Shown here: in pieces, positions 5,520-60,350 of the stretch
Position numbering within the stretch: position 1 is the stretch's first letter
Layout: the number at the start of each line of letters is the position of its first letter
NCBI GenBank assembly: GCA_951406725.2
Contig: OX597827.1
Span: 62,062,001 to 62,126,000, forward strand
DNA length: 64,000 nt
Direction of reading: 5' to 3'
Source: Octopus vulgaris
Lineage: Eukaryota
Notes under the pieces: model-generated
The model's input: only the letters and a program-made list of their open reading frames with translations
What the model was told of the DNA's origin: nothing
The model's database searches: none
Translations under genes and position numbers: made by a program

Positions 5520-6750
5520 TGTTTAAGAGATGAGGAATTATGTACATTATTTACATTATTTACATTTGACGGGTATTTGTCCTCATCTTGTTTGTTGTTA
5601 ACACAACGTTTTGGCTGATATACTCTCCAGCCTTCATCAGGTGTCTTGGAGAAATTTCGAGGATAGTCACATGACTGGTCTTAAAAAATTTTGTAGGTTT
5701 CCGCTATGTCCGTGTGTTAGTATGAAGTGAAAATGTTTAGCGTCGTAATTTAAGGCTGACACGGTTGACTGAAGATGTCTAGTGGTAATACTAAACAATC
5801 AATGCTCTGAATGTTTTCTGCTAAGTGTTTGTAGAGAATGAACACGTGATTAAGTTTAGAACTTTCTATACGCTTCCCGTTACGTACGTGCTTAGTGTCA
5901 CATGGCAGAATATTTTGCCCCTAAAATGATGGCTGACACGGTTGAGTGAACATGTCTAGTTACAATCAAGGCACTTCAAATTTAATCTGTTTGGTGGGAG
6001 AGTTGACAAGAGTCATTTATATGTAGTCCAGTGGTTAAAGTTTAGGTTGTTAGCTGTGTAGGTTCCTCATGTTAAGTGGCAGAATGAGTTTTATGTGTGA
6101 ATAGTTATTTGTGTATGTACTTTGTGAAAGTTTGTTAAGTATTGGTTTGTACTTTTGTATGAAAGTATTCTCTTTGTTTATCCGTGCTACATCTGTGGTT
6201 TTCACTGAACATAGGCAGGGTGGGAAGACCTGGAATTTAGGGGACTTATTTTTTGCACATATGTCTATGTGTCTACTCAGTGCAATCTGTCTAGTACTGG
6301 GGTCTCGTATTTGTTGCCGGTGGATGGCCAGTCTATTTCTTAGAGTAAGATTCGTTTGACCTATTTAATCTTCATGATATCCTTGACATTTGATAGCGTA
6401 AGCAAATTCCTTGAAGAACATGTAAAATGATTTTTAACGGTAAAAATCTGTCCTGAGTTGAATTTGTATGATGTGTCTTCAATAAGATTGACGCAAGTCT
6501 CACAATTGGGGCGGCCACATTTTTTGACTGTTGGTGTAGGAGTTGTGGAAGGTAATTTAGTACTTTTTTTTGAGAAACTTTGATTGTCTTTTGATTTGAT
6601 TGTTTTGTGTATTTCGAATGCTTGTTCCATTCTTGGGTCTTATCTTAGTAGTGGAATGCTCTGGTGGATAATATTGTAAACCACTGTGTTTCTTGGGTTT
6701 CTGTGTTGTAATAAAGGGTAGAGTATTGGATGTACCTGTTCTACCTGTTC
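5520..6750 (-). mobile_element. Penelope-like element 3' fragment: frameshifted GIY-YIG endonuclease, 3' UTR and terminal HHR
   Basis: ORF 6361..6630 has CGRPNCETC...FTVKNHFTCSSRNL. It continues out of frame as GQTNLTLRNRLAIHRQQI...LSRHIDIC...KENTFIQKYKPILN, the CCHH plus GIY-YIG signature of Penelope elements. Confidence 0.9.
5600..5645 (-). ncRNA. Minimal type I hammerhead of the Penelope terminal repeat (G12A decayed)
   Basis: Minus strand GACAC-CUGAUGA-A-GGCUG...CAGCC-AAAAC-GUU-GUGUU; helix II GGCUG/CAGCC; palindromic AACGUU. Confidence 0.75.
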
Positions 6751-6995: not shown

Positions 6996-7272
6996 ATTGC
7001 TTTCTAATATAGGCACAAAGCCTGAAATGTTGAGGTAGGAGGCTATAGTCAATTACATCGACCCTAGCGCTTAACTGGCACATAATTTATCAACCTCAAA
7101 AGGGTGAAAGGCAAAGATGACCTCGGTGGAAGACACTTGCCAAAGGTGTCCTGCAGTGGGATTGAATCCTGAACCATGTGGTTGGGAAGCAAGCTTCTTA
7201 CCATAAAGTCTCGTCAGCTCCTGGTCACTTCAGCAATGTAATTACACACGTGCTATTGGGGATTTTTTCTCC

Positions 7273-7305
7273 TTTGCGACGAAGAGCTATGCTCGAAACG
7301 TTAAA
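7273..7305 (+). ncRNA. Diverged minimal HHR (family H2)
   Basis: UUU-GCGACGA-A-GAGC(UAU)GCUC-GAAAC-GUU-AAA; core positions 3-4 mutated. Confidence 0.6.
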
Positions 7306-7575
7306 TACACTTTTTACTGAGCGTCAACTTATACATTCCTTGTGCACGTCCACTTATTATTGTTGATTTTATTGTTCGTTTATTTGATTTGACTACACAC
7401 ACACACACACACACACTTACACACATGCACACACACACACACACATGCACACACATATGTGATGGTGCTTTGATAACCAGCGTTGCTTTTTACAATTATG
7501 TAAATAATAATAATAGTATAATACTAATAATTTATAAGCTTTAAGTTTATAAAATACTATTAATACACACACACA

Positions 7576-8353: not shown

Positions 8354-8419
8354 TGTTGCTGTGTGCGTATGTTATGTTAAAAAGTATATATGAATAGATG
8401 GATTCGCCATGATGGATCG

Positions 8420-8600
8420 CTAACCACTACACATTCTTTATTTTCTCTCCTTGTTTCTTTCCGTGTTCCTTTCTGTGGAAGAGCGTAGGCTCGAAACGTT
8501 AAAGACTTTTTCATTTCCCGAGCGTTATACTAAAACATGTTTGTTGTCTACACCACCTGACTTCGTCATTTTGTTTCTTTTTTTGGTGAATTCTCTCTAT
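8420..8600 (+). mobile_element. ~190-bp repeat family H2 carrying a minimal HHR with A6U (8469-8504)
   Basis: CUUU-CUGUGGA-A-GAGC(GUAG)GCUC-GAAAC-GUU-AAAG; homologous copies at 47975, 59983 and 60162. Confidence 0.8.
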
Positions 8601-8903
8601 ATGAATGGACGGATGGATGGATGGATGGACGACGGTGTGGATGGAGGAAGAGAGAGGGAGGGAGCAAATCACCGGCGAACGGAGGGACTGACGTAAGCAT
8701 ATGTGTATTTACGTACCTAATATATGTATGAATTTATGTAATTAATGTTCGGTGAAGAACGACCTTGTTTCTGGGGCCAGTACGATATGTTGTTGACCTG
8801 TCAACCGGGATGATCATGGATTTCCATTCCATGATCGATGCTGTATCAGCGGTCAGAGGAACTAAATTCTTGTTGACTCAATTTGCTAAGCAGTAAGTAT
8901 CTG

Positions 8904-19011: not shown

Positions 19012-19416
19012 GTATGTGTGTGTATATATATCATATACACTTATATATATAAGAAAATCTCTCTTAAACTCTGTGTGTATCCATACGGTTATACGTGTGT
19101 ATGCATATATATACATATATTCATACATATGTGTGTGTGTATATATGTATATATATATGTGTATATAGATATATGCATGTGTGTATATATATACGTATGT
19201 GTATATATATGTATATACATACATATACATACATACATATATATCCATAGTGGATAGTACTATGAAACTAACGTGAAATACAATTAAGCGAAATAAAGTG
19301 CTCTCTTAAACAAACACAAGAAAAGGAAAATTATATAAAAAAGAAATTTTTTTGTGTAAGATAGAAGTCGGCGTAAATTGAGGTGAGATCTGTAATGTCC
19401 AATTAAAGTGATAAGG

Positions 19417-19512
<96 letters not shown>

Positions 19513-19513
19513 G

Positions 19514-20207
19514 AGATGCGGTCAGAGCGACGAAACCGTTCTGCACGCACTCGTTCAGTGTCCAACAATTTCCGACCTGTGGGCTTATGTCGAACAACTG
19601 CTGTCACGTGTGGGACGAGTCGGTTTATCAGCTGAGTCTATCGTCAATATTGTCACGCCTCCTTCCTTCAAACGGGAAGGAAGAGCTATTTTCATCATCC
19701 TTGTGGCTATGGCGAAAGAATGTATCTGGTGGACGCGTCTGAAAGGATTGGAGACAAACACTTTCCTCTCTGGTCAATCTCTCATCAACTTCTTCAAGTA
19801 CCACTTGAAAAGGAAAGTGAGAGTAGAGAGGCAAGTTTTGTCTAGCGAATGTTTTAAAAAAAGATGGGTGAATGTAGCAAGAATGGCACGTATGAATGAC
19901 GAAGCCACCTTGAGCATAGTCCTATGAACCCAGAAATCGAAAACAGAGAGTTGCTTATTTGCAAAAAAAAAAAAAAAAGAAATATAAAATGTGACATCAT
20001 TGACCGAGGTTACCGTGGTCTTTTCCGTAGGCTTTTCTTTGCACGGGTAAACCTCACCTGTCCTCCCCTTTACACTTCATATTGACATTTCTGTGATAAC
20101 GATCCCTATTGATCAATTTCCCCCCCCCTTTTTTTTTAAACCCCCCTTTTTTTGTCCTCTTTCTCTCCTTTTACGATCCCTTTTGATCGAAACTCCCCCT
20201 TCCTTTT

Positions 20208-35910: not shown

Positions 35911-36183
35911 TTCAATTTCATTTCCTCTACAGCCCTCCATATATATATATATGAATAGAAATATTAACATTTCTAAATCTCTCTAAAGGAGACTACGTCA
36001 CCGGTACTGGATATTAATACTTATCGCCAAGCTAATATGGCCGTCCAGGAAAATAGGACGAATGCTACCGTTGATTAGCTCCAAGAGCCCATCGCCTCTA
36101 GCTAGCTATGTGACACACAAACCTGTGTCCATTATAACCTTCGAACAGGAGAAGTCAACAGCTTCCCCTTCATGGTTTGAAAA

Positions 36184-36224
36184 CCACAGACTAGTTTCGG
36201 AGTAGTTGCCCCTTATGAATGTGG
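36184..36224 (-). ncRNA. Minimal hammerhead, U3-A8 variant with additional G5C
   Basis: Minus strand CCACA-UUCAUAA-GGGG(CAACUA)CUCC-GAAAC-UA-GUC-UGUGG. Confidence 0.75.
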
Positions 36225-36491
36225 AGTAGCCGAACCCAACAGGTGTCGCTGCTGACCGTCTGTTCGAAGGATTATTTACCTAAATTCAGTGGAATACACC
36301 CATTGGTTTTCTAAAATAGAAATATTAGCATTTCTAAATCTCTCTAAAAGAGACTAAGACAGCGGTACTGGATATTAATAATTATCGCCAAGCTAACATG
36401 GCAGTCTAGGAAAATAGGACGAATGCTGCCGTTGATTAGCTCCAAGACGCCATCGCCTCTAGCAAGCTATGTGACACATTGATAAGCTACT

Positions 36492-36902: not shown

Positions 36903-36960
<58 letters not shown>

Positions 36961-36962
<2 letters not shown>

Positions 36963-37516
36963 GCCCTGATGCAGTACCAGGCAGTGGCTCTCATGGCTTC
37001 TGATCTTAACTGATTGGAAGTGTCATCATGTACATTGTTTTGTCTTGGTATAAAAGATGGGCTACAGCAAATATTCTGCTCAATACCACAGATTTGCTTG
37101 TCAGTTGTTTGACCTTAACCAGTTGAGCATGTCCCTTAGTGGCTGACGATATGTGCATCTCTGATCACGAGCAGAAGTAGTGGGGGAGCATCATAGCCAT
37201 GTGTTGAGAGGGATTCTTTGGGGTTTGAATAATTCACCTCTGGAAACATGGGTGGTTCTTTCAACATCCTTAAACAACCCTTATTCAGGGACCTTTTGAG
37301 CGGGATGGGCTACTCAACCTGAAGAAAATTCTAACTGGGTCCCACCTGCAAGGTCATGTGCTGTTTATCGTGATATGAGATCACCATGTCGCGCACATAT
37401 GGTTGTGATGCATGTGCCTGGTGTACCCTTATCAGACGGGTAGTCATGATGGGTATATTGGGCTTCGTATATTTTACCCCAGTGTCACTTTGATGGCATG
37501 CACTGCTCTCTCACTC
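36961..37516. mobile_element. ~555-bp (TAA)n-embedded element, copy 1
   Basis: Bounded by (TAA)n on both sides; highly similar to 37577-38125. Confidence 0.85.
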
Positions 37517-37576
<60 letters not shown>

Positions 37577-37577
<1 letters not shown>

Positions 37578-38125
37578 TGCCCTGATGTAGTACCAGGCAG
37601 TGGCTCTCATGGCTTCTGATCTTGATTGGAAGTGTTATCATGTACATTGTTTTGTCTTGGTATAAAAGATGGGCTACAGCAAATATTCTGCTCAATACCA
37701 CAGATTTGCTTATCAGTTGTTTGACCTTAACCAGTTGAGCATGTCCCTTGGTGGATGACGATATGTGCATCTCTGATCACCAGCAGAAGTAGTGGGGGAG
37801 CATCATAGCCATGTGTTGAGAGGGATTCTTTGGGGTTTGGATAATTCACCTTTGGAAACATGGGTGGTTCTTTCAACATCCTTAAACAATCCTTATTCAG
37901 GGACCTTTTGAGCGAGATGGGTTACTCGATCAGAAGAAAGTTCTAACTGGGCCTCACCTGCAAGGTCATGTGCTGTTTATCTTGATATGAGATCACCATG
38001 TCGCGCACATATAGTTGTGATGCATGTGCCTAGAGTACCCTTATCAGACGGGTAGTCATGATGAGTATACTGTGCTTCGTATATTTTACCCCAGTGTCAC
38101 TTTGATGGCATGCACTGCTCTCTCA
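37577..38125. mobile_element. ~550-bp (TAA)n-embedded element, copy 2
   Basis: Same start ATGCCCTGATG and end GCACTGCTCTCTCA; same orientation; separated from copy 1 by (TAA)n. Confidence 0.85.
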
Positions 38126-38128
38126 TAC

Positions 38129-38198
<70 letters not shown>

Positions 38199-46668: not shown

Positions 46669-46757
46669 ACTTCCCTGAAGAGAAGGTTACATTGTTTTTC
46701 ACTATTTTATTCCTTTGGAATATTACCAGTGATATCTTCGAAACATGTGTCGGAAGT
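46669..46757 (+). ncRNA. Canonical type I hammerhead ribozyme with extended helix II
   Basis: ACUUCC-CUGAAGA-GAAG...CUUC-GAAAC-AUGU-GUC-GGAAGU: intact core, 6-bp helix I, GUC site at 46749-46751. Confidence 0.9.
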
Positions 46758-46873
46758 AAAAGTATTTGAATAACACCTGCGTTCAACTCCATTTATATAT
46801 ACTAATACTAATACATTTGTTTGTTTGTACTCCACCTGCCTTTGTCTTTTGTTTATTTTCGTAAACCTCCCCG

Positions 46874-46914
<41 letters not shown>

Positions 46915-47285: not shown

Positions 47286-47974
47286 CTAATTATGAGCGTT
47301 GTACTCTGTTGTGTACAGAAGTGACTTATTGCTGAATATGTCTACCTCCGACAAATTAACTGCATACTGAGTTCTTTGAGGTAGCTTTCCTTCATAATAC
47401 AATTTCTGCAAGTTGGATATAAAATTCTTCTTTTCGGTACATTTGTTCATTCCGGGAAGTTTTATAATTCAACGCCATGCGGCAAATAGCCTTATGCAGA
47501 GGCTGACAAGCAGATTCTGTTTTGTCACAGTGCCTGATGAGAGAGATAATGTTTTCGAAGCCGAGAATTATATAACGGGAAACTGCCCACGGGATCAATG
47601 AATCACCTGTCTGTCAACTGACCGAAGAATCAGCAATTCACATGATACAACCGTTATTGTGCAGTGTCCATGGTCAACATGCTTAATTTTGTCTCCGTTC
47701 TGTATCTTCGCTTCTCTATCTCTCATAGACACACATACACACACATACACACGTACACACACATACATGCACACGTATACGCACACACACATATATATCT
47801 ATATATACACACACTCACACGCGCATACGCAGAATATCCGACTCCTTTTCATATTTTACACGATGGAGGGTGAAGCTTTTTGTATACTAATGTCTCAATA
47901 TATATTTGAACAACTATTATTGAGTCGTGTTTGCAAGCTCTTCCTTCTCATACATACACAGATATATACATACG

Positions 47975-48151
47975 ATAGATCGTTAGCCACTACACACATG
48001 TTTTTCTCTCCTTGTTTTTTCTGTGTCCCTTTCTGCAGAAGAGCGTAGGCTCGAAACGTAAAAGACTTTTTCTATTCCTGAGCGTTATACTAATACATCT
48101 GTTTGTTTTGTACACCACCTGTCTTTGTCTTTTGCTTTTTTCGTAAACGCT

Positions 48152-48155
<4 letters not shown>
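47975..48155 (+). mobile_element. Repeat family H2 with minimal HHR, A6C (48029-48064)
   Basis: CUUU-CUGCAGA-A-GAGC(GUAG)GCUC-GAAAC-GUA-AAAG; ends in (TA)n. Confidence 0.8.
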
Positions 48156-58584: not shown

Positions 58585-58672
58585 CTTCCTTGATGAGAAG
58601 ATTGCATTTTTTTTACACCGTTTATTCCTTTGGAATAAAACCAATGTTGTCTTCGAAACATGTGTCGAAAGT
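58585..58672 (+). ncRNA. Hammerhead ribozyme, decayed paralogue of 46669-46757 (C3U)
   Basis: CUUCC-UUGAUGA-GAAGA...UCUUC-GAAAC-AUGU-GUC-GAAAG; downstream flank also homologous. Confidence 0.8.
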
Positions 58673-59407: not shown

Positions 59408-59982
59408 CAATAATATCTGGGTAATAAAGATTTTAGAATTTTTTACTACCAGTGGCGTAGCGTATAGAAAAATTAATCAATAGACTATATATTATTCATA
59501 TAAGATACAGTGTACGTTTAAAAACATAAGAGGTGTCCATCATAGGAGTCCCTTACGCTAGAAGGGACATACCTCCTGGTAGGTATGGTAGGCAATGCTA
59601 ACCCTGAATAAAATAGATCGATAGTAACATTTTCCTTTTATGGCAAAATATGCACCTAATTCAATAAAATTATAAAGGTTACTCTGATTACTCTGCATAA
59701 AATATTTTATTTTTTGTAGATTAGGTAGGCATAATTCGCCCCTGCATTTCAATCTCAGTATCAAAGCTACACATAGTATTGCTGTAGTACATGTGCTGCG
59801 CACATTCCTACAACAACCTTTTCTTTACGTGCTATAAAGGTGGAAGTAAATCTGCCTGCAATTCAGTCGTGCGCCTTTGTTTCGTTTATTTTTTTTGTGT
59901 TTTACTACATAAACATCAGCAGCTGCCTACCCTGAGTAATTACTGAGGGCAAGTGCCATATATATATATATATATATATATT

Positions 59983-60346
59983 TTCTTCTCACCTTGTTTT
60001 TTTTCTGTATCCATTTCTGTAGAAGAGCGTAGGCTCGAAACGTAAAATAAATTTTTAAATTCCTGAGCGTTATACTAATACATCTGTTTATTTTGTACAC
60101 CACCTGCCTTCGTTTTTTGTTTTTTTTCGTGAACTCTCCCTATATATATATATATTCGCAATGATAGATCGGTAGCCATTAAACCTTTTTCTATTTTCTC
60201 TCCCTGTTTATTTCTCTGTTCCTTTCTGTCGAAGAGCGTAGGTTCGAAACGTAAAAGACTTTCTCACTTCCCGAGCGTTAAACTAATACATCTGTTTGTT
60301 GTTTACACACCCGTCTCCGTCTTTCGTTTTTTTGGGAAATACTCAC

Positions 60347-60350
<4 letters not shown>
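59983..60350 (+). mobile_element. Two tandem H2 units, each with an A6U minimal HHR (60013-60048, 60222-60257)
   Basis: HHR cores 209 bp apart, separated by a short (TA)n. Confidence 0.85.

Follow-up and report, generated by a model that had tools for sequence, protein, structure and literature searches.

The 64,000-nt stretch of DNA analysed here (the window) is AT-rich animal DNA laden with microsatellites, and its repeat motifs suggest a cephalopod, probably an octopus. In it, four copies of a minimal hammerhead motif, H2 (CUG-U/C-N-GA-A-GAGC..GYUC-GAAAC-GUH), were found, all on the + strand and with C3 at 8473, 48033, 60017 and 60226. A first-pass annotation had recorded them at 8469, 48029, 60013 and 60222, positions that are the helix I starts, 4 nt before C3, and that serve as names of the copies below. 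The last two lie in adjacent repeat units separated by a short (TA)n spacer. The features of this locus and of the related copies are as follows.

7240..7375 (+), distant sister-family copy; A6-C7 kept, G3-C4 read, core at 7276-7282
8387..8402 (+), left copy of a candidate 16-bp target-site duplication, matching 8598-8613 at 14/16 positions
8403..8597 (+), full-length H2 unit; C3 8473, U6 8476, H17 8500
8598..8613 (+), right copy of the candidate target-site duplication
46803..46875 (+), 3' part of H2 alone; no hammerhead, shared 3' end, then (TA)n
47966..48154 (+), full-length H2 unit; C3 48033, C6 48036, H17 48060, then (TA)n
59958..59981 (+), (TA)n tract 5' of the tandem, judged from the sequence to be the likely insertion target
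59982..60140 (+), H2 unit copy 1, without its first ~40 nt; groups with the 48029 and 46803 copies in alignments
60013..60048 (+), minimal hammerhead of copy 1; C3 60017, U6 60020, A7 60021, extra A 60024, helix II 60025-28/60033-36, G12 60037, H17 60044
60141..60154 (+), (TA)n spacer between the two tandem units, as read in the sequence
60155..60346 (+), complete H2 unit, copy 2 of the tandem; clusters with copy 8469
60222..60257 (+), minimal hammerhead of copy 2; C3 60226, U6 60229, C7 60230, H17 60253

The pattern CTGYNGAAGAGC-N4-GYTCGAAACGTH matched the window four times, as compared to a mean of 0.00 in 100 shuffles. Taking the copies in the order of C3 8473, 48033, 60017 and 60226, position 6 reads U, C, U and U, position 7 reads G, A, A and C, and H17 reads U, A, A and A. 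The claim that all four copies are without A6 is therefore borne out, with U or C at position 6 in 4/4, and none of the four window copies has the CUGANGA box with A6 that is a criterion for minimal type I hammerheads of Penelope-like elements (PLEs). The remainder of the motif agrees with that class. An unpaired base between A9 and G10.1, together with a G10.1-C11.1 pair, is present in 4/4 copies, as is GAAACGU, which provides GAAA, the A15.1-U16.1 pair and a palindromic 15.2-16.2 without helix III. A short helix I (3-5 bp in PLE minimal hammerheads), a helix II and a U-rich 5' flank are present as well, and assignment to the minimal type I hammerheads of the Penelope kind, proposed in the first-pass annotation, is supported by these features, which fit the consensus in the excerpted text of PMC4209133. 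Helix I consists of just 4 bp, three of which are A-U, and there is no helix III. Across the stems 38/40 cells are paired, versus 22.5-66.7% when the pairing is slid, with no covariation support; the G-U wobble at 60243 is private to copy 2, C standing there in 93-98% of the depth of the contigs described below. The cut sites predicted after 60044 and 60253 agree in position with the sequence. Rfam covariance models returned 0 matches up to E 10 on 59983-60347, and the best 150 of 540 rows of a whole-window Rfam scan held microsatellite-driven matches alone.

The H2 unit also contains GAGCGU twice, at 60234-60239 in helix II and, 39 nt later, at 60273-60278. The second occurrence, which is also found in the 7273 relative, could compete with the hammerhead fold by base-pairing to G12 and the helix II 3' strand. 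That relative is homologous to H2 on both sides of the hammerhead (the local alignment beats all 300 shuffles) and does keep A6, as had been claimed, but it also reads G3-C4, which had gone unmentioned, so its own core is broken. All six H2-type copies (7273, 8469, 46803, 48029, 60013 and 60222) are on the + strand and occupy five separate sites, with a chance of about 0.06.

The state of position 6 across the family was read from contigs of 4 of 24 sequencing runs, aligned at 80% likeness to 59983-60347, variants being reported from 5% upwards. Matching contigs numbered 25,659 in X1 (organism A, possibly the source of the window), 23,019 in X4 (organism C), 15,096 in X11 (organism E) and 4,517 in X15 (organism A). 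H2 is thus a very abundant family; the counts are of contigs rather than copies, summed contig depth was not used as a copy number, and the 4,517 contigs of X15, which is RNA by guess, were not taken as evidence of transcription. No piled-up ends appeared, which for contigs is uninformative. Variants were tabulated as the best 40 of 67 rows, with counts by kind of change bounding the remaining rows. In X1 and X15 T>A reaches 5% in just two places per run, the flank rows 60123 and 60220, and A6 is accordingly below 5% at both 60020 and 60229. G6 is likewise below 5% in X1, the single T>G place listed lying outside the core. One T>C place in X1 lies outside the best 40 of 67 rows, and X15 has no such T change. 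One T>A place each in X4 and X11 lies outside the best 40 of 67 rows and could be position 6, but a majority allele at that position would rank among the listed rows, which indicates that U6 is the family state in these runs also. By the same method, private changes of the reference (60243, 60216, 60090) show at 92-100%. The 6 C>T and 6 G>A places of X1 outside the best 40 of 67 rows could include core CpGs, and short contigs differing in the core may be aligned less often. Contig depth is lower at the 5' end of the unit, an effect confounded by divergence of the reference copy and not used here.

The absence of A6 is therefore a trait of the family and not decay, a stronger result than had originally been claimed. 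Had the family master carried A6, the four copies would each have lost it after insertion; the copies are indeed old (77-85% pairwise identity), and A6 is found in the sister copy at 7273. The probability that all four lost it independently, however, is 1e-5 to 2e-4, three of the four share U, and the contig depth of A6 (below 5% in X1 and X15) refutes this history for organism A, leaving it highly improbable overall.

Alleles at other positions trace the history of the family. The variants 60058T, 60123A, 60220A and 60221T stand at 19-80% in organisms A and C and at 0-2% in E, and 60293C, 60294T and 60116G stand at 17-58% in E and under 1% in A and C. Such lineage-specific alleles indicate that separate subfamilies amplified after host divergence and that U6 persisted in both. 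Subfamily-level variation falls at 19/133 well-covered flank positions versus 0/28 core and stem positions (p 0.02, best 40 of 67 rows). Loop II (60238) and H17 (A or U) vary between subfamilies, and the remaining core and stems are invariant among the rows listed; at H17 A>T reaches 2-49%, with no A>G in the 4 runs, so that the residue is not G. Among the four window copies, the core and stems differ in 4/120 cells versus 53/468 for the flanks (p 0.004). Both tests are modest, as the copies are related and the family test was devised once the table had been seen. Comparison of core with flanks had been put forward at the outset as a check on the motif, and on both data sets (the family one limited to the rows listed) the core and stems proved the more conserved.

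Conservation of this degree bears on whether the motif is a dead passenger, its ribozyme killed by A6U in one master of an element that needs only its 3' part, with apparent core conservation produced by a short history and mapping bias. The family test is indeed post hoc and drawn from the best 40 of 67 rows; Naiad PLEs are reported to reach very high copy numbers without canonical hammerheads (PMC8557442), and hammerhead mutants of the Anolis PLE are reported to insert normally in vitro (PMC11167929). The four window copies, however, are free of read mapping and show the same difference, and in the same contigs loop II and H17 do vary, which speaks against a mere gap in mapping. We consider a dead and neutral motif, which would make H2 an ordinary repeat with a broken ribozyme, to be quite unlikely. 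If cleavage is dispensable, conservation of G8, G12 and an H17 other than G needs another cause.

The anatomy of the copies points to how they were made. The H2 unit is ~195 nt long and ends 93-97 nt past H17, immediately before a TA run; this 3' end is the same in 5/5 copies, and the 5' part is missing in 2/5. A fixed 3' end, 5' truncation and microsatellite targets are the marks of a PLE derivative copied by target-primed reverse transcription (TPRT). TATAT-run ends matching the 11 letters after the run number 2/284 and are exactly the 8387/8598 pair. Together with the 16-bp candidate duplication and the TA targets, the fixed 3' end and 5' truncation suggest TPRT by a PLE protein acting in trans. 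H2 itself encodes no protein: the window contains no ORF attached to it, and a Pfam search of 133 non-repetitive window frames gave none at the cut-off. A tRNA head was looked for in H2 without success, and a bacterial promoter scan of the unit stayed at chance level and is irrelevant to animal DNA.

The two adjacent units had been read as a tandem that folds as a dimer and releases a 209-nt monomer. Their 209-nt spacing and ACGU palindrome are as described, but at 77% identity they are the least alike full pair. Five informative sites group 60013 with 48029 and 60222 with 8469, one supports another grouping and none supports the tandem pair. A rolling-circle dimer would start identical, so two insertions into one TA tract fit better and probably account for the tandem; PLEs have been reported to insert beside earlier copies (PMC6765202). 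Release of a 209-nt monomer is accordingly not supported, the units coming from different subfamilies, and such a product would be a chimera of two old copies. The predicted 209-nt circle folds weakly (46% paired, -18.5 kcal/mol), which on an old decayed copy is a weak test. Energy folding gave helix I a probability of 0.00 in all four monomers and placed a forced double hammerhead 29 kcal/mol above the minimum; these values were given little weight because energy models penalise hammerhead junctions and no active control was included.

Helix I covariation had also been cited as a signal of function. While the letters AUUU/AAAU do occur at 60013/60048, they were not confirmed as such a signal. 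They are found in one copy alone, are alignment-dependent and lie in a stretch carrying two further changes; MAFFT places T60048 as an insertion, after which 0/8 pairs have a two-sided change. The chance of at least one two-sided event is 0.04-0.16 over 9 pairs in 4 copies and 0.02-0.07 for helix I alone. At 60048 the family contigs mostly have G (41-74% of the few reaching across this position) or stop at 60047; contig depth drops 7- to 30-fold from 60044 to 60048, and the loose ends start G-type. The change of C60222 to A is below 5% in all four runs. Without helix III the motif would be active only as a dimer, with helix I pairing across copies, and a double hammerhead at this locus would have A-G and C-U at the cited pair and be left with 3-bp helices. 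Covariation was therefore rejected as evidence, being one event that is mismatched in the proposed dimer.

As a control on A6, the 3' half of the motif was found in at least 120 metagenome loci, 36 of which were GC-rich and set aside as chance matches before A6 was counted. Among the matches listed, A6 is present in 78/84 loci below 49% GC and in 65/66 animal-like loci having C3 and G5; these loci are not independent, as one or two repeat families account for many of them. The main family corresponds to the Neptune hammerhead of Acropora digitifera listed in PMC4209133. Similarity to H2 beyond the motif was absent among the metagenome matches listed (at least 120), and the 22-nt motif had 0 matches in viral contigs. 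Two of the 84 listed animal-like loci, L008 and L068, have the A6 motif downstream, in sense, of an ORF with a GIY-YIG-like end, and the L008 ORF has a CxxxxCxxC linker. A Pfam search of the two ORFs gave no match; they match a PLE remnant in the window weakly (E 4e-5 and 7e-4). In 32/84 of the listed low-GC loci position 4 is C instead of U, an abundant animal hammerhead family with another family-level core variant, many copies of which are inverted pairs.

The PLE remnant, at 6050-6640 (-), is the broken end of an ORF in two frames, with a CxxxxCxxC linker and a GIY-YIG-like domain (Pfam PF01541 E 0.008, below the cut-off), and is of Neptune/Nematis type. A minimal hammerhead family that keeps A6 (CUGAUGA) lies at 5640 (-) and 3855 (-), both copies with decay changes and one of them about 400 nt downstream of the remnant. 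This Neptune-like remnant thus has a hammerhead family of its own, different from H2, and its similarity to H2 is not convincing: 18 comparisons of H2 with other hammerhead families or with the 3' region of the remnant gave p 0.017-0.97. An autonomous PLE linked to H2 was not found, and the terminal sequence of the window remnant does not match that of H2. In another hammerhead family the motif keeps A6, helix II holds a very long insert, and the palindrome reads ACAUGU. It occurs at 58590 (+) and at 46676 (+), where the 5'-truncated H2 copy comes directly after it at a short TA run. Two hammerhead-like motifs of opposite orientation, 36242 (-) and 36497 (+), lie inside an inverted repeat; next to it are direct repeats (35954-36478) and a 670-bp tandem of 95% identity (36904-38187). 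A 170-aa frame at 19415-19927 (+) starts at a microsatellite and has no Pfam match. We take it to resemble the cysteine-bearing 3' end of a LINE ORF2.

The family-wide U6, abundance, lineage-specific subfamilies and copy anatomy observed here are best accounted for, with somewhat better than even confidence, if H2 is a non-autonomous, TPRT-copied derivative of a Neptune-like Penelope pLTR in which A6U has reduced cleavage, cleavage is not required for spread and the fold is still constrained. Descent from a Neptune-type PLE is probable. H2 would then be a ~195-nt retroelement derived from the pseudo-LTR of a PLE and mobilised in trans through the RT/GIY-YIG protein that an autonomous partner encodes. 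This partner protein would nick (TA)n DNA and, we infer, begin reverse transcription 93-97 nt past the hammerhead cut site with + strand H2 RNA as template, and TPRT of this kind would yield TA-flanked copies that share one 3' end and differ at the 5' end. The core may have changed from an ancestral CUGACGA to CUGUCGA in a master and, in a subfamily, further to CUGUAGA, with U6 masters continuing to amplify in at least two host lineages. Self-cleavage would probably be much reduced and not a required step, and constraint on the remaining motif would arise either because its fold or sequence matters to the mobilising ribonucleoprotein or because low, assisted cleavage persists.

The expectation of low activity comes from published mutants. 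A natural phage A6C hammerhead is reported to cut at under 0.1 per min (PMC3088659), a mutant over 10,000-fold slower in Mg2+ than in Mn2+ (PMC7151607), and in a pairwise scan single and double mutants of the CUGA turn all had low activity except the C3-G8 swap (PMC9901934). From these position-6 and CUGA-turn mutants H2 appears to be a crippled ribozyme, and without help the A6U motif is probably a poor cutter; the literature compared gave no rate for A6U in a ribozyme of this type.

Selection for cleavage could instead have tuned the U6 hammerhead down to a working ribozyme. Two RNAs would pair through the ACGU palindrome and, helped by PLE protein or Mn2+, cut after H17, and the resulting unit-length RNAs or circles would serve as templates, as in retrozymes. 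This possibility, which we regard as unlikely though a serious contender, draws on a core, helix II and H17 (A/U, no A>G in 4 runs) that are intact among the rows listed as the flanks diverge, on the activity in Mn2+ of the slow natural A6C hammerhead (PMC7151607), on the protein-assisted hammerhead reported for the Anolis PLE (PMC11167929) and on the weak cleavage of PLE minimal hammerheads as dimers (PMC4209133). Against it stand the low activity of CUGA-turn mutants other than the C3-G8 swap, the 4-bp helix I with its three A-U pairs, the absent helix III, the weak fold of the 209-nt circle as compared to the "highly self-paired" retrozyme circles, and the fact that the sole window tandem joins two subfamilies. 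A more specific form, in which the fixed U6 hammerhead is off as naked RNA and on only with Penelope protein or Mn2+, is doubtful. If true, cleavage would be licensed at one transposition step, H2 would be a natural, selected conditional hammerhead, and searches requiring CUGANGA would miss whole ribozyme families.

The H2 family is a natural experiment: it went on amplifying in two or more lineages when a core base regarded as near-essential had been lost and the other parts of the motif retained. Its value lies in showing readily whether Penelope hammerheads are maintained for their cutting or their shape. The role of the hammerhead in PLEs is stated to be unresolved in PMC8557442, PMC7761336 and PMC11167929, as far as the excerpted texts go. 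Descriptor searches that fix CUGANGA, as well as Rfam models, overlook very abundant hammerhead-derived repeats. The literature compared here held no U6 hammerhead family and no octopus hammerhead repeats. Small PLE hammerhead variants are reportedly described by Lunse et al. (RNA Biol 14:1499), and H2 may already have an entry in a repeat database such as Repbase or Dfam.

Among described systems, the PLE minimal hammerheads are closest (PMC4209133, Cervera and de la Pena 2014, in the excerpted text). H2 shares with them the U-rich 5' flank, short helix I, extra base between 9 and 10.1, G10.1-C11.1, GAAA-C-G-U-H, absence of helix III and occurrence mostly as dispersed single copies, and the nearest motif is the Neptune hammerhead of Acropora digitifera, with a 4-bp helix II ending GCUC and a tetraloop. 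A core variant described there is U3-A8. A6 is present in all 56 representatives, a count that is not independent since the descriptor required A6, whereas U6 is family-wide in H2.

Natural loss of A6 was previously known from one phage motif, and a family-wide U6 in a high-copy animal repeat was not found in the literature compared. That motif, the A6C hammerhead of phage Bcep176, resembles H2 in that the other core positions are intact, and it is reported to be slow in Mg2+ and to cut well in Mn2+ (PMC3088659; PMC7151607). Unlike this single C6 phage motif, H2 has U6, is without helix III and is a high-copy animal repeat known from sequence alone.

With animal non-LTR retrozymes H2 shares non-coding units (170-400 nt in retrozymes), a type I hammerhead, low GC, a proposed PLE origin and genomic monomers and dimers (PMC7229834; bioRxiv 10.64898/2026.07.22.740005). 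Cores in retrozymes, as the available portions of these sources describe them, are complete, the tandem arrays are homogeneous and the circular RNAs are self-paired. The core of H2, in contrast, is altered, its copies in the window are mainly solo, its one tandem unites two subfamilies (two adjacent units, both without A6 and 77% identical), and its unit, at 46%, is weakly paired and not a highly self-paired circle, though this old decayed copy makes a weak test.

The Anolis Poseidon element PAc provides the closest parallel in layout (PMC11167929, excerpted). Both insert in AT-rich targets, and both have a hammerhead near the 3' end, in PAc about 90 nt before the RT start. PAc is autonomous, with a working hammerhead that cuts only with protein and whose mutants still insert in vitro, whereas H2 is protein-less. 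Neptune and Naiad PLEs reportedly have a bias towards microsatellites (PMC8557442). Within the ORF of the Anolis PLE, the hammerhead cut falls at 26 nt and RT begins at 111-118 nt, which by subtraction places the two about 85-92 nt apart, and the 93-97-nt tail of H2 agrees with this distance in scale.
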